The notes under the pieces: model-generated | What the model saw: the letters and a program-made list of their open reading frames with translations, nothing else | Told to the model about the DNA's origin: nothing | Databases searched by the model: none | Part shown: positions 18,876-57,200 of the stretch, one piece after another | Layout: every line of letters begins with the position of its first letter | How positions within the stretch are numbered: the first letter of the stretch is position 1 | NCBI GenBank assembly: GCA_965649105.1 | Contig: CBFGJP010000002.1 | Span: forward strand, 637-64,636 | Source: a candidate division WOR-3 bacterium | GTDB lineage: Bacteria > Hydrothermota > Tepidihabitantia > SM23-42 > JAOAFX01 | Direction of reading: 5' to 3' | Length of the DNA stretch: 64,000 bases | Made by a program: the position numbers and the translations under genes

Positions 18876-18906
18876 AAAAGGCGGGCATAAGCCCGCCTTT
18901 TTTATT
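18876..18906. terminator. bidirectional rho-independent terminator between ORF 18374 (+) and nadE (-)
   Basis: aaaaaaG GCGGGC ataa GCCCGC C ttttttatt: GC-rich 7-bp stem flanked by an A-run and a T-run. Confidence 0.8.
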
Positions 18907-21776: not shown

Positions 21777-21872
21777 ATCTTACCTCCTTGTTCCTCGCCA
21801 TTTTTGTGCAATTTCTCGCACCGCTACACAAGGTAGCACATCTTTATTAATATAGATGGCTTAGACCATCTA

Positions 21873-21946
<74 letters not shown>

Positions 21947-22037
21947 ATTTTGAAAGATCGTCTATGGTTATAAGGTTTGGAAGCCTGTAGCGTCAAAGGT
22001 AAAAAGTTTTTAGTTCCATTATGCTCCAAACCATATA

Positions 22038-39289: not shown

Positions 39290-39720
39290 CCGGGGTGGTC
39301 GGATAGCCGCCTTGCACTGCTGGTGCGAGGAGGAAAGTCCGGGCTTCACAGGGCAGGATGCTTCCTAACGGGAAGGGGCTGTCTATGAATGGATTTGCAT
39401 CGGTTAAATGCAAAACATTCTTAGATGGCTACGGAAAGTGCCACAGAAAATATACCGCCTGCCGCTATTGCTGGCAGGTAAGGGTGAAAAGGTGGGGTAA
39501 GAGCCCACCGCTCCAGTGGTGACACTGGAGGCATGGCAAACCCCATCCGAAGCAAGACCAAACAGTCCTGTATATAGTTGCCCGCTTGGTCTTAAAAAGA
39601 CGCAGGACAGGTAGGTCGCTTGAGTCCGATGGTGACATCGGTCCCAGATAAATGGCTATCTATGTCCGCCATTCACTATGGCGAACTAAAACAGAACCCG
39701 GCTTATGAACCACCCCATCC
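39290..39720 (+). ncRNA. rnpB: RNase P RNA (bacterial type A)
   Basis: Conserved GAGGAAAGTCCGGGCTTCACAGGGCA (P4 region), AAGGGTGAAAAGGTGGGGTAAGAGCCCACC, and 3' ACAGAACCCGGCTTA…ACCACCCC pairing with 5' GGGGTGGT (P1). Confidence 0.85.
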
Positions 39721-39725
39721 TACTA

Positions 39726-50763: not shown

Positions 50764-51972
50764 TTATTTCTTTAAATTAAATTTTGTCAGGAGTACATTA
50801 ATTGCTTCCTCAAGGAATTCTTTCTTTAAGAATATGTTGATTGATAATTCTGATGTGGTGACTGCTTCAATGTGTGTCTTGATCTTTGAAAATTCTTTAA
50901 AGATATCGGCTAAAATCTTATTTTCAGAACCGATTCCTGCACCAATAATACTCAATGAACTGATGTCAAGGGATTCTTTTATCTCTTTTATCTTTAATTT
51001 TCTTGCCAATTTCCCGATTATTTTCTTAACCAATTCTTTTTCCTCAAGGGGCGTGATAAATGAAAGATCAAAGCGTGGTGCATCAGAGATTCCGTGGAAG
51101 AAGAATTTTAGATGGACGCCGGCTTTTGTTAATTCGGTTGTAACCTGAGATAGATATTTTGGATTTTTTGGAACCTGGACAAGGGTTATTAAATACAGTC
51201 CTTCACTATGTGTGATTGCCTTGGGTTTTGGATGTTCCATACCATTTATATGGGTGATAAGTGTACCTGCTTTATTATTAAAACTATTTTTTACTTCAAT
51301 GGGAACACCAAATCTTGCACCGATTCCAGTTGCCCTTGGATGTAAGACCTTTGCCCCACGACTGGCAAGTTCAAGCATTTCTTCGTAGGATATTTTATCG
51401 ATCTTTTTCACTCCCGGAAATCTATTCGGGTCCTCGGTGAATACACCATCCACATCCGTATAAATAATACATTTTTGTGCATTCAAAGCGGCAGCAATGG
51501 CAACCGCAGTCGTATCAGAGCCACCCCTGCCTAATGTTGTTATTTCTTTTTCAAAACTCACACCTTGGAATCCACAGACCACAGGAACAAAACCCTGGCT
51601 TAATGCGTTTTTTATCCTTTCATCACGAATTTCAATTATCCTGGCGTCGGTATGACGGTTATCCGTAATTATCCCAACCTGTGAACCAGTAAATGAAATC
51701 GCCTTTAATCCCCATTTTTGCAACGCCATTGTGAATAGTGCAACTGAGATTCTCTCGCCAGCGGTGAGGAGCATATCCATCTCCCTTGCCTTAGGGTTTT
51801 TTGTTATTTGATTTGAGAGTTTAATCAATTCATCCGTCGTATGCCCCATTGCCGAAACCACGACAACTACATCATTATCTTTTTTCATCTTTGCCACGCG
51901 TTTTGCTGCCTTCAATATGAGTTGCGCATCAGCAACCGATGTTCCACCAAATTTGACAACAGAAAGACGCAT
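50764..51972 (-). CDS. lysC: aspartate kinase
   Basis: KFGGTSV N-terminal motif, amino-acid kinase fold, two C-terminal ACT domains. Confidence 0.9.
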   Translation of the reverse strand: MRLSVVKFGGTSVADAQLILKAAKRVAKMKKDNDVVVVVSAMGHTTDELIKLSNQITKNPKAREMDMLLTAGERISVALFTMALQKWGLKAISFTGSQVGIITDNRHTDARIIEIRDERIKNALSQGFVPVVCGFQGVSFEKEITTLGRGGSDTTAVAIAAALNAQKCIIYTDVDGVFTEDPNRFPGVKKIDKISYEEMLELASRGAKVLHPRATGIGARFGVPIEVKNSFNNKAGTLITHINGMEHPKPKAITHSEGLYLITLVQVPKNPKYLSQVTTELTKAGVHLKFFFHGISDAPRFDLSFITPLEEKELVKKIIGKLARKLKIKEIKESLDISSLSIIGAGIGSENKILADIFKEFSKIKTHIEAVTTSELSINIFLKKEFLEEAINVLLTKFNLKK

Positions 51973-51978
51973 CCTTGG

Positions 51979-52006
51979 ATTATATAAATTTTTAAAAAAA
52001 GGTCAA
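51979..52006 (-). promoter_or_regulatory. sigma70-type promoter TTGACC-16-TATAAT for lysC; leaderless
   Basis: Minus-strand ttgacc 52006..52001, tataat 51984..51979, ATG 51972. Confidence 0.5.
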
Positions 52007-52009
52007 TAT

Positions 52010-53944
52010 CTAAGTTTTTTGTTTGAATTTTAATTTTTCCTCATACATCATTTTATCTGCGATGTTGATAATGTCCTTCAGGCTTTTTGAATCACTGGGA
52101 TTAAAATAGGCATAACCAATACTCAAGGATATTTCGGGATAGTTGTTTGATTCATTATGTTTTTGGATATTGTTTTTTAAACGATTCAGCATCACATCAA
52201 TCGTTTCTGGTTGGGCTTCAGCTGCTAATATAATAAATTCATCCCCACCAACACGGGCAATTATATCAGACTTTCTAAAACTATTTTTTAATATATTTCC
52301 TACCTGTTTCAAGACCATATCACCGGTATTGTGCCCGAATCTATCATTCAATTGCTTCATACCGTTCAAGTCGCAATATAATATATAAAATCCTTTACCG
52401 GTCTTTTTTGATAGATAAATCTGCTGTTCTCCAAGTTTATTAAAACCGCGGCGATTGAACAAACCAGTTAGTTCATCTAACATTGATTGCGCAGTCAATT
52501 TTTCTTCGAACTTTTTACGGGCAGTGATATCTACAATATAGTTTCTTGTGCCAACAATTTTGCCATTTTTTTGTAAAATGATTGTATTTACCTCAAGGTT
52601 TATGATATTGCCATTTTTATAAATTCCCCGCACTTCGTAGATTTTAGGCGCATCTTCTCCCTTTATTCTTTGCCGGTGATAAAATCTGACAATCCTTAAA
52701 TCATCAGGGTGGATATAATCTTCAACCCTTAATTTTTTGAATTCCTTCGATGTGTATCCAAATATACGCGCAAGTTTTTCATTAAAGTATACCACATTAC
52801 CATCTATGTCATCAACGAGAATCCCTACCTCGGCATTTTCCACAAGGTCACGATATCTATTTTCGCTTTCAATAATCTCTTTTTTCTGCTGATTGATTGT
52901 TTCAAGCATACTATTTGTCGTTTTAATGAGGTCAATGAATTCCTTGCTTGCACCCGAAACTTGAATCCTTTTCTGGGTTTTTTCTAAATCAATGTCACTT
53001 AACTGCCGGGAAATCTGAGTGAGGGGTTTCAAAATTGAATTATTGATTACAATTATGATTAGATGAAATATCAAAAGACCAAAAATAATAATCGTTGTTA
53101 ATATATAGCTCAGTGTCTTTTTTCCCTGATGTACAATTGCATTACTTTCATAGATATTTACACATATTATCTTTTGTGATATGACATCGTAGAATTTATG
53201 ACTGGCACCGATTCGGTCCTTTTCGTTCCATATTGAAAGCAGATGCTCTTCATTAATATTATTCAATAAACATAAATCTGTTGAATCATCGTATCTCACA
53301 TCAATCATAATACCGGTTAGATCCATAATCGGCTTCAGATTTAATGGTCTTGCCATTAAAAGCCAGCCTGTAAAAGGTCCCTTGCGCTGACTGGTGAGTA
53401 TGGATTCTGCAGATATCAAATAAGGTTTGTCTCTGATGATTGTGAATTCACCAGCAATCAGATGGTTTCTCAATTGTTCGTTCTGAATTATCTTTTGGAA
53501 TTTATCACATAATTCATTGTCTGGCATAATTATCGTCTCGGTCTCCGGTTCATATTGTCCGGCATAAATAACATTACCATTGAGATCATAGTAGATGATG
53601 AATCTTAAGTCCAGGGTAACAAAAGATGCGGGGATAAGATTATTCTCTTTATAGGCTGGATTCTTTCCAAGGACAAATTGATAGGTTTCATCCCATACAC
53701 CCCAATCTTTGTTGATCTGCACAAGCCGGGATATTTCAGAGTCAATCAGTCTATGCACTATCTCAATTTTATCCTTGATTTGTTTATGGGCGAGATTCTG
53801 GAATTGCCTTCTAAATATTATCTCTGTGACGGCAATAATTACTATGAGAAAGGCAAGGGCAAGTAGAAAAAGATATACTGTTAACTTTCTTTTTAGCGGT
53901 ATCCTTGATAAATCGTAAGTTCTCATCGCCTTATATATATGCAA
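52010..53944 (-). CDS. membrane sensor diguanylate cyclase (periplasmic sensor domain – TM – PAS – GGDEF)
   Basis: Two TM helices bracketing an approx. 250-aa extracytoplasmic domain. PAS-like segment. GGDEF domain with RVGGDEFIIL and RxxD I-site-like KQLNDRFGH context. Confidence 0.85.
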   Translation of the reverse strand: MHIYKAMRTYDLSRIPLKRKLTVYLFLLALAFLIVIIAVTEIIFRRQFQNLAHKQIKDKIEIVHRLIDSEISRLVQINKDWGVWDETYQFVLGKNPAYKENNLIPASFVTLDLRFIIYYDLNGNVIYAGQYEPETETIIMPDNELCDKFQKIIQNEQLRNHLIAGEFTIIRDKPYLISAESILTSQRKGPFTGWLLMARPLNLKPIMDLTGIMIDVRYDDSTDLCLLNNINEEHLLSIWNEKDRIGASHKFYDVISQKIICVNIYESNAIVHQGKKTLSYILTTIIIFGLLIFHLIIIVINNSILKPLTQISRQLSDIDLEKTQKRIQVSGASKEFIDLIKTTNSMLETINQQKKEIIESENRYRDLVENAEVGILVDDIDGNVVYFNEKLARIFGYTSKEFKKLRVEDYIHPDDLRIVRFYHRQRIKGEDAPKIYEVRGIYKNGNIINLEVNTIILQKNGKIVGTRNYIVDITARKKFEEKLTAQSMLDELTGLFNRRGFNKLGEQQIYLSKKTGKGFYILYCDLNGMKQLNDRFGHNTGDMVLKQVGNILKNSFRKSDIIARVGGDEFIILAAEAQPETIDVMLNRLKNNIQKHNESNNYPEISLSIGYAYFNPSDSKSLKDIINIADKMMYEEKLKFKQKT

Positions 53945-54044
53945 AATCTGTGCCTGAAAACTATTTGAAATTTCAAGTGTTTCTTATCCTCGGTTGTTTC
54001 ACAAACAAACATATGTCTGTTCAAACACGAAATCTTAGAATCAA

Positions 54045-54236
54045 TTAGTATGCATCAGCGCAAGAAAAGGAAATTCCGAGTTTTAAAGGCGAAGATACCG
54101 GTATCCCTTCTGGTGTAAAGACATCAAAAACCATAAAAGAATTCTTTGTTCGTCTCATTCCTCTGTTCAGCCCATTTCTGGAAATCCTTCGGTTTCTTTT
54201 TTTGCCATCTGTATTTTTTTGCTTTTTAGGGTCCAT
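54045..54236 (-). CDS. small basic protein (63 aa), possible nucleic-acid-binding; uncertain
   Basis: Strong RBS AAGGAGG 5 nt before ATG; Lys/Arg-rich N-terminal half; located immediately downstream of a terminator. Confidence 0.3.
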   Translation of the reverse strand: MDPKKQKNTDGKKRNRRISRNGLNRGMRRTKNSFMVFDVFTPEGIPVSSPLKLGISFSCADAY

Positions 54237-54274
54237 TTTGCCTCCTTTCTTTTAAACCCTATTAAAAAGCCAAC

Positions 54275-54300
54275 AAAAAAGCCCACCATTTCTGGTGGGC
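54275..54300 (-). terminator. rho-independent terminator (minus strand)
   Basis: Minus-strand GCCCACCA gaaa TGGTGGGC followed by TTTTTTG. Confidence 0.75.
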
Positions 54301-54422
54301 CCTCTGTGCCTGAAAATTCCTTCAAGGCACCATAGAGCCCAACCCTCTTAAAAGAATTACTATTCCCAATATGGAAATCAGGGATAAGTGAGTGCGCGCA
54401 AAATTAAATTGATTATTCATAG
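54301..54422 (-). ncRNA. candidate small RNA, or leaderless micro-ORF (32 aa, single TM helix), bracketed by consensus promoter and terminator
   Basis: Minus-strand TTGACA (54456..54451), 16-nt spacer, TATAAT (54434..54429). Transcript of about 145 nt ending at the 54275-54300 terminator. Contains a long imperfect hairpin GGGCUCUAUGGUGCC…GGCACAGAGGGCCC, and an ATG at 54420 opening MNNQFNFARTHLSLISILGIVILLRGLGSMVP. Confidence 0.35.
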
Positions 54423-54428
54423 CCTAAA

Positions 54429-54456
54429 ATTATATTAAAAAAACAAACTTTGTCAA
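54429..54456 (-). promoter_or_regulatory. perfect consensus sigma70 promoter TTGACA-16-TATAAT (minus strand)
   Basis: Sequence read directly; see the candidate sRNA feature. Confidence 0.55.
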
Positions 54457-54495
54457 GCATAATTGACATTTATCAAATAATCAATAAACTTCCAT

Positions 54496-55746
54496 ATGCT
54501 CGACCTTTTTAAGAAAAAGGGCATCTTATTCCTTACATTATCCAATGGGACATCCCAATTAGGCGACAGGTTAACCCATATGGTTATAATCACGCTCATC
54601 GGTGTAAAATACCCGGGTAAAATCTCTACCTTCAGTGAATTTGCCATAACCTTTTCTCTCCCGGTAATAATCCTTGCACCATTTGTTGGTGTGATTGTTG
54701 ACCACTGGAATCGACAGACCATAATGTTTCACTGCCATTTAATCCAATCAATTTTGATTTTTTTAACACCGAGTTTTGTGGTTTTGTTTAATAGTTTCAT
54801 ACCAATATGGATCCTTGTCTTTGTCTTCTTTGCACTCGATGTCTTTAATAACACCGCCAAGAATGCAATCGTTCCGGATTTAGTTGAATATAATGAACTT
54901 GTTTCGGCAAATTCTTTTATTATAACAATTGCCCGTATTGCCACATTTTTAGGAATGGTGGGCGGTGGTTATTTAATAAAATGGGTGGGCTGGAGATTGG
55001 GATTTTATCTTGATGCAAGCACCCATCTTATTGCTGGTTTCCTGGCACTCGGGATTGGTGCAAGAATATTATTTGAACCATCAGCAAAGACTGAAATATC
55101 ACTTAAACAGAAATTAAAAGAATCATGCCGAATTTTTTTGCTGGATTTAAAGGAATTAATAAATTTGCTATTTCGCGACCGGGTCGTTATGTTCGTGATG
55201 ATTTCAGTATTTATCCTGCCTTTTTCTGCCGCAATTGCTTATACTGTGCTTATATATCTAATCCAGCAAACATTCAATATGGGAACATCTGGTGTAGGTT
55301 GGTTGGGTGGCATAATCGGTGCCGGGATGTTTTTGGGGGGAGTTCTTATGGGATTTTTGGGAAAGAGAGTAAATCGGCCCTCGATAATAATCTGTAGTAT
55401 GACGGTTTTATCTTCTTTTTTTATCATAGGTCCATTTTTTATTACACCCATATTTTTATATTCAATTGCATTTGTTTCGGGAATGGTATTTTCTTTTGTG
55501 GGTATTGCCCAGGATACGATCTTACAGGAAGATGTTATGAAATCAATCAGGGGTAGAATGTTTGCAACAAAGGAATTTGTTATAAATTCTGCTTTTCTTA
55601 TCTGTGCCGGTGGGATTGGATTGATTTCAAATATTTTAAAGCCATTCACCATTCTCAGATTCACGGGTGTAATAATCGGATGCTTAACGATCCTTGCTAT
55701 TTTTATCTTACATTCCATACCCGCTCAGGAGAGAAAAAGACTATAA
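54496..55746 (+). CDS. MFS transporter
   Basis: 416 aa, 12 predicted TM helices, MFS loop motifs. Confidence 0.75.
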   Translation: MLDLFKKKGILFLTLSNGTSQLGDRLTHMVIITLIGVKYPGKISTFSEFAITFSLPVIILAPFVGVIVDHWNRQTIMFHCHLIQSILIFLTPSFVVLFNSFIPIWILVFVFFALDVFNNTAKNAIVPDLVEYNELVSANSFIITIARIATFLGMVGGGYLIKWVGWRLGFYLDASTHLIAGFLALGIGARILFEPSAKTEISLKQKLKESCRIFLLDLKELINLLFRDRVVMFVMISVFILPFSAAIAYTVLIYLIQQTFNMGTSGVGWLGGIIGAGMFLGGVLMGFLGKRVNRPSIIICSMTVLSSFFIIGPFFITPIFLYSIAFVSGMVFSFVGIAQDTILQEDVMKSIRGRMFATKEFVINSAFLICAGGIGLISNILKPFTILRFTGVIIGCLTILAIFILHSIPAQERKRL

Positions 55747-55757
55747 ATATTTCCTCC

Positions 55758-55785
55758 TTTACAAACTTAGAAATATTGGTATAAT
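55758..55785 (+). promoter_or_regulatory. sigma70-type promoter TTTACA-16-TATAAT; leaderless at ATG 55791
   Basis: tttaca 55758-55763; tataat 55780-55785; ATG 6 nt later. Confidence 0.5.
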
Positions 55786-55790
55786 TCTCT

Positions 55791-57200
55791 ATGTTTATCA
55801 GAGGGAAAAGAATAATTAGAGAAAAAAAGATTGGTGTGATAAATCCTTATAATAATTACCTGATAGAGGAAATCGGATTGAGCACAGAAAAGGATGTTAC
55901 TGAAGCCATTCAGATTGCCCAAAAAGGGTTTAGTATACTCAAAAATATCACGGCAGGAGAAAGAGCAAAAATTCTTGAACGAACCGCCAAGATAATTTCT
56001 GAAAAAAAAGAGGATTTTGCCCGAACGATCTGCCTAGAGGTCGGAAAAACAATAAACGAGGCGAGGACAGAGGTTGAGCGCGCAATAAATACGATAAAAC
56101 TATCAAGTATGGTAGCAATGAGCCTGAAAGGCGAAACCGTCAGAATGGACCTCAGCGGTTCAACGAAAAAAATGGGATTTTACCTGCGGGTTCCCTTGGG
56201 AATAGTGCTTGCAATTTCGCCGTTTAATTTTCCTTTAAATTTGAGTTGTCATAAAATTGGACCGGCAATAGCCGCGGGTAATTCGGTTATATTCAAACCC
56301 GCTACAAAGACTCCACTCTCGGGCTTGATGCTGGCGCAGGCCCTCATTGAGGCTGGATTACCAGAAGAAGGGATTTCAGTCCTTGTTGGTCCGGGTTCAA
56401 CCATTGGAATGGCATTGGTGCGGGCACCGGAAATTCGAAAGGTGAGTTTCACCGGTTCATTAGAAGTTGGAGAAACGATTATGGCTAATTGTGGTATGAA
56501 GAAAGTGACAATGGAACTCGGTTCAAATTCAGCAGTGGTTGTATTTAAAGATGCGCCATTAAACCTTGTTGCAAAAAAGATTCGTAAGGGTGGTTATACA
56601 CTTGCTGGACAGGTATGTATTTCAGTTCAACGGGTATATGTGGAGGAAGCAATAGCAGAAGAATTTTTGAGAGAATTATCGCTTGAGGTCGGTCAAATAA
56701 AATATGGTGACCCGATCCATGAAGATACAGAAATGGGTCCGATGATTGATGAATCTGCATTAAAAAAGGCAGAAGAATTCGTTGAAGATGCCAGGAAACA
56801 TAAAGGCATATTGATTCTTGGTGGTTCAAGATTGGGAAATATCTTTTTACCGACAATCATTTTTGATGTTGATGAAAATGCGAAGATAATTCAGGAAGAG
56901 GCATTTGCCCCAATGGTGAGTGTGAACAAATTCAAAACTATTGATGAGGCGATTGGGAAGGTCAATAATACAAAATATGGACTCCAGACCGGGATATTTA
57001 CAAAAGATATAAATCTTGCTTTGAAATGTGCTAAAGAGATTGAATCCGGTGGTGTATTAATAAATGAAATACCAACATTCCGCGTTGATAATATGCCTTA
57101 CGGTGGTATGAAGGGTAGTGGATTGGGCAGAGAAGGACCGGAATTTGCGATAAAGGAAATGACGGAAGAAAAATTGATTATTTTTGACGAGATAGAATAG
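55791..57200 (+). CDS. NAD(P)-dependent aldehyde dehydrogenase family protein
   Basis: ALDH motifs: catalytic Glu in MELGSNSA, catalytic Cys in GQVCISVQR, and EEAFAPM. Confidence 0.85.
   Translation: MFIRGKRIIREKKIGVINPYNNYLIEEIGLSTEKDVTEAIQIAQKGFSILKNITAGERAKILERTAKIISEKKEDFARTICLEVGKTINEARTEVERAINTIKLSSMVAMSLKGETVRMDLSGSTKKMGFYLRVPLGIVLAISPFNFPLNLSCHKIGPAIAAGNSVIFKPATKTPLSGLMLAQALIEAGLPEEGISVLVGPGSTIGMALVRAPEIRKVSFTGSLEVGETIMANCGMKKVTMELGSNSAVVVFKDAPLNLVAKKIRKGGYTLAGQVCISVQRVYVEEAIAEEFLRELSLEVGQIKYGDPIHEDTEMGPMIDESALKKAEEFVEDARKHKGILILGGSRLGNIFLPTIIFDVDENAKIIQEEAFAPMVSVNKFKTIDEAIGKVNNTKYGLQTGIFTKDINLALKCAKEIESGGVLINEIPTFRVDNMPYGGMKGSGLGREGPEFAIKEMTEEKLIIFDEIE

Follow-up and report, generated by a model that had tools for sequence, protein, structure and literature searches.

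A conserved promoter-to-terminator unit in uncultured WOR-3 bacteria as a candidate ribosome-dependent attenuator with a leaderless leader reading frame

Introduction

The analyzed stretch of DNA, hereafter the window, comprises 64,000 nucleotides from a candidate division WOR-3 bacterium (assembly GCA_965649105.1, contig CBFGJP010000002.1, positions 637 to 64,636). On its minus strand, between positions 54456 and 54275, it carries a compact unit in which a consensus promoter is followed at a short distance by a strong intrinsic terminator, the two enclosing a short open reading frame (ORF) and a long imperfect hairpin. The question raised by this locus is whether such a unit is a gene in its own right, producing a small peptide or a small RNA (sRNA), or the leader of the gene located behind it. 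A preliminary description made from the letters alone had chosen the first kind of answer, proposing either a leaderless 32-aa membrane peptide, for instance a type I toxin, or a structured sRNA. Our preferred reading, which we hold with moderate confidence and which leans on folding models, is that the unit attenuates transcription in a ribosome-dependent way through a leaderless leader ORF, and that it controls a gene for a small basic protein.

Anatomy of the unit

All coordinates of the unit and its parts refer to the minus strand. The following elements can be distinguished.

54456..54429, minus strand: sigma-70-type promoter, with TTGACA at 54456..54451, a 16-nt spacer and TATAAT at 54434..54429
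54420..54322, minus strand: leader ORF of 32 codons with a TGA stop, probably leaderless or with a leader of at most 3 nt; peptide MNNQFNFARTHLSLISILGIVILLRGLGSMVP
54387..54349, minus strand: segment 1, a run rich in Ile, Leu and Val, LSLISILGIVILL, with the proposed stall (sensor) codons
54349..54343, minus strand: Shine-Dalgarno (SD)-like purine block inside the ORF, AAGAGGG here and AAGGAGG in most loci, part of segment 2
54340..54297, minus strand: long imperfect hairpin formed by helices P1b and P1, read as an antiterminator, with the stop codon (54324..54322) inside it
54340..54334 with 54303..54297, minus strand: helix P1b, GGGCUCU paired with AGGGCCC; the 5' arm is GGGCUCU or GGGUCCU across loci
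54330..54325 with 54311..54306, minus strand: helix P1, GUGCCU paired with AGGCAC, around the stop codon
54305..54275, minus strand: intrinsic terminator, with core GCCCACCA at 54300..54293, loop GAAA, UGGUGGGC at 54288..54281 and U6 at 54280..54275
54247..54241 and 54236..54045, minus strand: SD sequence AAGGAGG and the gene for a 63-aa basic protein with a conserved C-terminal motif, the proposed regulated gene

The compact promoter-to-terminator layout asserted in the preliminary description is borne out, and so are the parts that it had named: the TTGACA-16-TATAAT promoter, the ATG located 8 nt after the -10 hexamer and opening a 32-codon ORF, the long imperfect hairpin, the strong terminator about 145 nt downstream of the promoter, and, directly past the terminator, the 63-aa basic ORF with its SD. 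The promoter matches the consensus at 12/12 positions and is the top promoter-like site within 53000..56000. The terminator has an extended stem of 13 pairs (54305..54276) and a folding energy of -20.5 kcal/mol. Strong canonical terminators number only about five in the 64 kb, this one included, and none of the others leads directly into an SD and an ORF. No promoter-like site was found between 54420 and 54236. Lacking a promoter of its own, the basic ORF must therefore depend on read-through of this terminator.

The hairpin and the terminator have the sequence GGGCCC in common, and their pairings are mutually exclusive. The end of the leader frame lies inside the hairpin, the last six codons (27-32) being its 5' arm. 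Taken together, the shared GGGCCC, the frame that ends in the hairpin and the promoterless basic ORF are what one expects of an attenuator acting in cis, not of a free-standing gene. The terminator is placed between a leader ORF and a promoterless gene, and the structure that excludes it has a 5' arm over which a ribosome finishing the ORF would sit.

Folding of nine aligned transcripts with RNAalifold yields three helices, P0, P1 and the terminator. P0 is a weak upstream helix in which the Ile/Leu/Val-coding stretch pairs with the purine-rich stretch that follows it; P0 and P1b compete for the 5' arm of the hairpin. By analogy with classical attenuators, this layout can be described as an anti-antiterminator, an antiterminator, and a terminator. 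Folded alone, the hairpin has an energy of -23.6 kcal/mol in the window, and the seven intact loci defined below range from -21 to -29 kcal/mol; for the terminator these loci give -16 to -20 kcal/mol.

Conservation among uncultured WOR-3 bacteria

The arrangement is more than a chance coincidence of elements, because it recurs as a whole in 8 further distinct loci: in two metagenome-assembled genomes (MAGs), on one metagenome contig, and on five contigs that carry orthologs of the diguanylate cyclase (DGC) gene found downstream of the unit. The MAG loci, two loci carrying full-length cyclase orthologs, came from a genome scan with the cyclase, and a metagenome scan with the alignment of the leader peptides gave one more copy; the remaining copies lie on the contigs of cyclase orthologs. 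The sample thus comprises nine distinct copies (the window, L001, L002, L034, L035, L036, L039, L041, and L042). Seven of them keep an intact downstream basic ORF and are called intact loci here; L035 and L002 are excluded from this set. The unit is thus conserved in nine distinct loci of uncultured WOR-3 bacteria.

Both promoter hexamers are identical in 8/9 loci and weakened to CTGATA and TATATA in L035. All seven intact loci have the same terminator sequence, whereas L035 (-8.0 kcal/mol) and L002 (-3.6 kcal/mol) have a degenerate one. The pairing potential of the hairpin is conserved as well, with 92% of cells pairing, compared with 29-56% in slid controls. The neighborhood is also stable: a divergently transcribed MFS transporter gene accompanies the unit in 8/9 loci and the cyclase gene in 9/9.

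A covariance model built on the nine copies scores those copies at 127-169 bits. With this model and a search for the peptide motif, no second copy of the unit was detected in 533 kb, and two scans of viral contigs gave no match. No Rfam family reached its gathering threshold in the region. At an E-value of 10 only sub-threshold matches appeared, all driven by the terminator, the best being BTnc231 with 25 bits vs 80; the Rfam comparison suggested earlier is thus negative for housekeeping and known small RNAs. An exact-sequence look-up with four proteins of the window returned nothing.

The leader reading frame

The leader frame is open in 9/9 loci with a length of 30-32 codons, whereas each of the other frames contains up to seven stops. 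Insertions and deletions within the frame are all of 6 or 9 nt; the loop immediately after the stop varies by 1-3 nt. All three stop codons are seen at the end of the frame, and in L035 the stop is shifted by one codon. The ATG (54420 in the window) lies 5-8 nt past the -10 hexamer in all nine copies, at the predicted start of transcription, and in no locus is it preceded by an SD. Since the frame is kept open and changes in length respect it, the frame matters, and it is very probably translated, from a messenger that would be leaderless or carry a leader of 1-3 nt. This agrees with the leaderless translation of the small frame proposed in the preliminary description.

The same geometry is found at other genes. 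In the window, near-consensus sigma-70 promoters with a -10 hexamer ending 5-6 nt before the start codon precede at least 10 long genes, in line with the earlier remark that many genes of this region are leaderless. Leaderless mRNAs thus seem to be routine in this WOR-3 genome, as far as promoter spacing can tell. Examples are as follows.

3982, 39761, 55791 and 59312, plus strand: leaderless-type ATGs with a near-consensus promoter, the -10 hexamer 5-6 nt upstream
26783, 20622, 12420 and 3904, minus strand: leaderless-type ATGs of the same kind

The frame is conserved, but its amino acid sequence does not appear to be what selection has preserved. In the gap-free core of 19 codons the numbers of variable columns at the three codon positions are 12/8/10, the proportion of synonymous differences (pS) is 0.25, and the ratio of nonsynonymous to synonymous proportions (pN/pS) is 0.58; there is no codon periodicity, and no frame stands out. 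An internal control is provided by the C-terminal 24 codons of the basic ORF, located 90 nt downstream in the same genomes, where the corresponding values are 14/7/23, pS 0.72 and pN/pS 0.26. Judged by these substitutions, the leader core is constrained as nucleotides and not as amino acids, because its pattern is flat and the control gene shows a clear coding signal. The ratio of nonsynonymous to synonymous rates gave no frame-specific coding signal in the core, and is used here, relative to the control gene, as an argument against selection at the protein level.

The last residue of the peptide varies between P, L (in L034), S (in L041) and PW (in L035); the changes of the last codon from CCU to CUU or UCU both keep G-U pairs in helix P1 of the hairpin. 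The purine block is kept as nucleotides (AAGGAGG, AAGAGGG, AAAGAGG) with varying encoded residues (RR, RG, KR), and pairs with UUCU in helix P0.

The peptides themselves are rich in branched-chain residues. Ile, Leu and Val account for 35-57% of the leader peptides, compared with 26% in the long ORFs of the window, an enrichment that a hydrophobic helix would show alike. The codons AUU CUU UUA (Ile22-Leu23-Leu24) are invariant in 8/9 loci. On the folding model presented below, codons 22-24 may serve as the sensor.

The purine block is also located 9-10 nt before two successive start-type codons (54322-54349 in the window), which in the nine loci read AUG GUG, GUG AUG, AUG AUG, or AUG UUG. A nested mini-ORF of three codons (M-V-P-stop) inside the leader ORF is conceivable from this spacing; equally, the block could be a pairing partner or an SD-like pause site.

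The downstream basic protein gene

The basic ORF is, by its substitution pattern, a real gene, because pS is 0.72, pN/pS is 0.26 and 23 of 24 third positions are variable. The distance between the U tract and its SD is 5-27 nt across loci. Leader and basic ORF are present or absent jointly across 12 loci; they occur together in 8 loci, and both are absent beside the DGC orthologs of L037, L038, and L046.

Two loci depart from the common arrangement. In L035 (2628-2870) the basic ORF is reduced to a remnant of 12 codons, MKGMTLKAIDAY, and the promoter, start, stop and terminator of the leader are all altered. In L002 (5551-5880) the terminator is broken and the basic ORF is a 44-codon version with neither an SD nor the Lys-rich N-terminus.

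In the encoded protein the N-terminal half is variable and rich in Lys and Arg, and the C-terminal part carries a conserved motif, D-x-FTPEGIPV(S/T)SPLNLG (FTPEGIPVSSPLxLG). An exhaustive HMMER search among 1.84 billion proteins found three related representatives of the family, and a word-based homolog search found nothing. No match was obtained in Pfam, NCBIfam, PADLOC, or PDB. An AF2 model from a four-sequence alignment shows no fold and a mean predicted local distance difference test score (pLDDT) of 56; according to this model, the product seems to be disordered, with a short linear motif. It is poor in Ile, Leu and Val (9/63 residues).

A modeled ribosome-dependent switch

Competition between the hairpin and the terminator was modeled at the decision point, with the U tract removed (as still held in the RNA-DNA hybrid) and a ribosome footprint masked from A-18 to A+12. 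The probability of the terminator core is 1.0 as long as the A site holds one of the last ten codons, the stop included. A ribosome with codons 22-24 in its A site lowers this probability to 0.0-0.3 in 6/7 intact loci, and to 0.7 in L042. In the free RNA it is 0.6-0.97 in 6/7 intact loci. Footprint edges at +10 and +14 give the same outcome. Unless segment 2 is free, the hairpin does not prevail over the terminator core.

For comparison, everything upstream of GGGCCC was subjected to 150 dinucleotide-preserving shuffles per locus in five loci. The median minimum of the shuffled sequences is 1.00, and the real value was reached in 0-1 cases. Within this model, the ability to out-compete the terminator in dependence on the position of the ribosome is a specific property of these sequences, because shuffled upstream sequence almost never reaches the real value.

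Proposed mechanism

The suggested course of events is the following. The consensus promoter would fire constitutively, and a 70S ribosome would load on the 5'-terminal AUG and trail the polymerase. If translation proceeded smoothly to the stop, the ribosome would cover the last six codons and with them the 5' arm of the hairpin (GGGCUCU..GUGCCU); GGGCCC would then be free for the terminator, and an RNA of about 147 nt would be released. If the ribosome lagged or stalled in the Ile/Leu/Val run, most effectively on AUU-CUU-UUA about ten codons before the stop, the 5' arm would be exposed. The long hairpin could form as soon as GGGCCC was made and would hold half of the core stem of the terminator while the U tract was still in the hybrid. 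The polymerase would read on into the SD-led basic gene, and possibly into the diguanylate cyclase gene, because there is no terminator in between. In an RNA that is not translated at all, the upstream pyrimidine-rich stretches would pair with the purine-rich segment 2, and the terminator would mostly win. The signal is likely to be the supply of charged Ile and Leu (and Val) tRNAs, or the general speed of translation, judging from the codon content and the geometry.

Several observations weigh against this scheme. In the full RNA with a free U tract, the minimum free energy structure is always P1 plus the terminator. The hairpin covers only 4/8 core terminator pairs, and the direct-path barrier from hairpin to terminator is 2.4-2.7 kcal/mol, so that the hairpin would perhaps be a poor kinetic trap unless stabilized. 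The free RNA of the window itself favors the hairpin, with a terminator probability of 0.17. The upstream helix P0, formed by segments 1 and 2, is weak (-5 to -11 kcal/mol) and inconsistent among loci. Across the nine sequences no pair is altered on both sides, and shuffles of the letters of the 3' arm pair equally well; the sequences are too similar for covariation to prove the structure, with which the data are compatible. The Ile and Leu codons of the leader are common codons, and nothing known connects the basic gene with the metabolism of amino acids. Finally, L002 keeps a perfect promoter, the leader ORF and P1 despite its broken terminator, a retention that hints at a role of the RNA or the peptide beyond attenuation and is the strongest argument for such a role. 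A further caveat concerns the 155-nt RNA as a whole, whose stability is nothing out of the ordinary (z-score -1.66).

Two narrower versions of the sensor were considered and rejected. A rare-codon sensor is ruled out by the common Ile and Leu codons, and an arrest peptide of the Pro-stop type by the last residues of L034 (Leu), L041 (Ser) and L035 (Pro-Trp).

Alternative explanations

The alternative that survives best, although we regard it as unlikely, is that the leader ORF is a gene in its own right, coding for a small hydrophobic peptide that would cross the membrane once. The terminator would then simply end the transcript of this gene, the peptide might modulate the MFS transporter or the CHASE4 cyclase, and expression of the basic ORF would result from leaky read-through. 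A gene of this kind would account for the conservation of the leader ORF in 9/9 loci, for the synteny with the MFS (8/9) and cyclase (9/9) genes, and for the two exceptional loci, L002 with its ORF, promoter and hairpin intact next to a degenerate terminator, and L035 with its core retained where the basic ORF is lost. The order of a hydrophobic run followed by Arg-Arg likewise fits the positive-inside rule. But the run itself is short: without a charged residue, Asn, Gln, His or Pro it extends over at most 13-16 residues, as in IlvL of Escherichia coli, compared with about 18-20 residues for a membrane span, with Kyte-Doolittle means over 19 residues of 2.0-2.7. The leader core lacks a protein-type substitution pattern (12/8/10 variable columns of 19 codons, pS 0.25, pN/pS 0.58), the changes of the C-terminal residue are dictated by RNA pairing, and searches with the peptide in Pfam, NCBIfam, PADLOC and PDB gave no match. 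A peptide gene would also leave unexplained both the upstream sequence that out-competes the terminator and the promoterless basic ORF. On these grounds the leaderless small membrane protein of the preliminary description is not upheld: its core shows no protein-type selection, and its uncharged run has only 13-16 residues.

The special case of a type I toxin fares worse. No plus-strand promoter-like site reads into 54270..54420, those nearby pointing away to the MFS gene, so that no promoter for an antisense RNA is seen; nor does translation look tightly repressed, the ORF having a consensus promoter, a 5'-terminal AUG, and an unstructured A/U-rich start. The toxin is rejected for its absent antisense promoter; besides, a cell could hardly tolerate a leaderless toxin gene driven by a consensus promoter, and there is no family match.

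A trans-acting sRNA of about 147 nt, possibly dual-function or derived from an attenuator as rnTrpL is, appears quite improbable. Produced in large amounts by the consensus promoter, it would use the single-stranded core as a seed, and P1 together with the terminator and its U tail as a module for stability or chaperone binding. Conservation at the nucleotide level at all three codon positions of the core is what such an RNA would show, and the consensus promoter, the strong terminator and the two conserved 3' hairpins would suit it; attenuator-derived sRNAs are documented (PMC6614838), and L002 keeps the unit though its terminator is weakened. A purely non-coding RNA, however, needs neither an open frame nor in-frame indels. 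The conserved purine block is SD-like, not anti-SD, no Rfam family matches, and no target can be proposed. In its position, too, the unit behaves like a cis element, standing always right in front of the same gene. Of the structured sRNA put forward in the preliminary description, the hairpin stands as real, with conserved pairing potential; the region matches no known Rfam sRNA family, and the cis attenuator is preferred.

Least probable, and in our opinion very unlikely, is a factor-dependent switch, in which a protein, acting in the manner of BglG/LicT or of ribosomal-protein leaders, stabilizes or destabilizes the hairpin (the obvious candidate being the product of the basic ORF, in an autoregulatory loop), or in which the nascent peptide arrests the ribosome in response to a small molecule. 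The hairpin is about isoenergetic with the terminator core and easily displaced, as protein-stabilized antiterminators are, the downstream protein has a high content of Lys and Arg and a prediction of disorder, and the core is constrained at the nucleotide level. But such a switch would leave the conserved in-frame ORF at the 5' end unexplained, the basic protein has no detectable RNA-binding domain, and the arrest variant is opposed by the variable C-terminal residue (P, L, S, PW) and by the absence of selection at the amino-acid level.

Relation to known regulatory systems

The ribosome-dependent attenuator that we prefer resembles the ilvL, ivbL and leuL attenuators of Proteobacteria, in which a short ORF rich in Ile, Leu and Val lies in the leader transcript, its stop codon adjoins a hairpin that competes with an intrinsic terminator, and the gene behind has no promoter of its own. 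IlvL of E. coli is similar to the 30-32-aa leader peptides described here both in length and in its hydrophobic run of 13-16 residues. In contrast to these attenuators, the WOR-3 ORF lacks an SD and is located at the 5' end, and the antiterminator overlaps half of the terminator core; the downstream gene encodes a small disordered basic protein instead of a biosynthetic enzyme, and the host is an uncultured WOR-3 bacterium. The unit is not a member of the Rfam leader families (Leu, Thr, His, Trp, Phe), with which it shares no similarity of sequence or covariance model: matches of leader families align on the terminator only (Phe_leader, 19-20 bits vs a gathering threshold of 55; Trp_leader, 14.7 vs 41).

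The closest precedent is the attenuator of ilvBNC in Corynebacterium glutamicum, with a leader peptide rich in branched-chain amino acids (BCAA), MTIIRLVVVTARRLP, and a start codon 1 nt from the transcription start site (PMC11857589). The corresponding ilvB-II RNA motif was later recognized as an upstream ORF (uORF) through the in-frame start and stop codons in all members and the BCAA enrichment (PMC10272879). Common features are translation without a ribosome-binding site, a BCAA-rich peptide, three hairpins, and a short terminated transcript; ilvB-II too was at first a conserved 'RNA motif' and became a uORF by the criteria applied here to the WOR-3 unit. The peptide of C. glutamicum has 15 aa, compared with 30-32 aa here, and the regulated genes are ilvBNC, whereas the WOR-3 target has no known metabolic link. 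The only likeness in sequence is a coincidental ending, ...RRLP and ...RRLGP, and the WOR-3 unit is known from its sequence alone.

Other parallels are more distant. Mycobacterial leaderless polycysteine short ORFs are described as first cistrons and as cis-acting, amino-acid-responsive attenuators of downstream genes (bioRxiv 10.1101/834739). The short leaderless first cistron is shared, as proposed here; the mycobacterial ORFs have runs of a single amino acid (Cys), whereas the WOR-3 unit combines a canonical terminator and a competing hairpin with a mixed Ile/Leu/Val run. Small hydrophobic proteins and type I toxins (Ibs, TisB, Hok, Fst; AcrZ, KdpF) are similar in length (about 30 aa), in the single hydrophobic stretch, and in the compact gene with a terminator; they differ from the WOR-3 unit, with its lack of an antisense promoter, its constitutive consensus promoter on a leaderless ORF, its lack of purifying selection at the protein level and its lack of a family match. 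The rnTrpL/peTrpL system of Sinorhizobium (PMC6614838, PMC7298713) likewise yields an abundant short terminated leader RNA that encodes a peptide, and action in trans is possible in principle in both cases; for the WOR-3 RNA a trans target is a possibility only. Thus, the WOR-3 unit differs from known attenuators in phylum, in the partial overlap of the antiterminator and, above all, in its target gene.

Genomic neighborhood

The genes and signals around the unit, and two RNA genes elsewhere in the window, are as follows.

53926..52010, minus strand: CHASE4-PAS-GGDEF diguanylate cyclase gene, downstream of the unit and followed by the aspartate kinase gene
53954..53940, minus strand: sigma-54-type -24/-12 element GGCAC-N5-TTGCA, 14 nt before the cyclase ATG, the only perfect match in the window
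51972-52006, minus strand: aspartate kinase promoter TTGACC-16-TATAAT, an 11/12 match, with the -10 hexamer ending 6 nt before the ATG
39291-39721, plus strand: RNase P RNA, bacterial class A (302 bits)
21872-21947, minus strand: tRNA-Ile (GAU) gene

The sigma-54-type element occupies the same place before the orthologous gene in 8 further loci (L001, L034-L039, L041); the cyclase gene therefore has a promoter of its own. A palindrome, TTGAAATTTCAA, precedes the element at 53976..53965. The aspartate kinase gene is, by the spacing of its promoter, probably leaderless and independent of transcription through the cyclase gene. An attenuator of aspartate kinase was considered and ruled out, the kinase having its own near-consensus leaderless promoter and not being always syntenic with the unit.

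On the other side, the -35 hexamer of the unit and that of the divergent MFS gene (plus strand, 54463..54468) stand back to back at 54451-54468 and form an inverted repeat, TGTCAA-N6-TTGACA, which is kept in L034, L036, and L039. This repeat could be a shared operator. In L041 only (about 2300-2460), the promoters of the MFS gene and of the unit lie apart, with an insertion of about 170 nt between them that carries CTTGATACT-like repeats in tandem.

Elsewhere in the window, a strong GC-rich hairpin, AAAAAAGGCGGGC...GCCCGCCTTT, at 18879-18898 is terminator-like on both strands and is therefore likely to be a bidirectional terminator between convergent genes.

Implications

A wider interpretation, which is speculative and which we consider distinctly unlikely as a whole, is that the unit is the sensor of translation stress or of branched-chain amino acids in a new WOR-3 regulatory module. 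Slow ribosomes would then result in synthesis of a disordered, Ile/Leu/Val-poor basic micro-protein with the FTPEGIPVSSPL motif, and possibly in more of the sigma-54-controlled cyclase, so that translational status would be coupled to cyclic di-GMP (c-di-GMP) signaling. The terminated 147-nt RNA, which would be abundant, its peptide, or both might also act in trans.

For the annotation of small genes, the locus illustrates that a conserved hydrophobic ORF of 30 codons need not be a membrane micro-protein; here it was the comparison of codon positions with the neighboring gene that separated the two readings. If the attenuator is real, classical leader-peptide attenuation operates in the deep-branching uncultured phylum WOR-3 and runs there on leaderless translation. 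Its target would be a tiny disordered basic protein encoded beside a c-di-GMP synthase, and not an operon for amino-acid biosynthesis. This would widen both the phylogenetic range of the mechanism and the range of its targets, and would provide a handle on an unannotated protein family.

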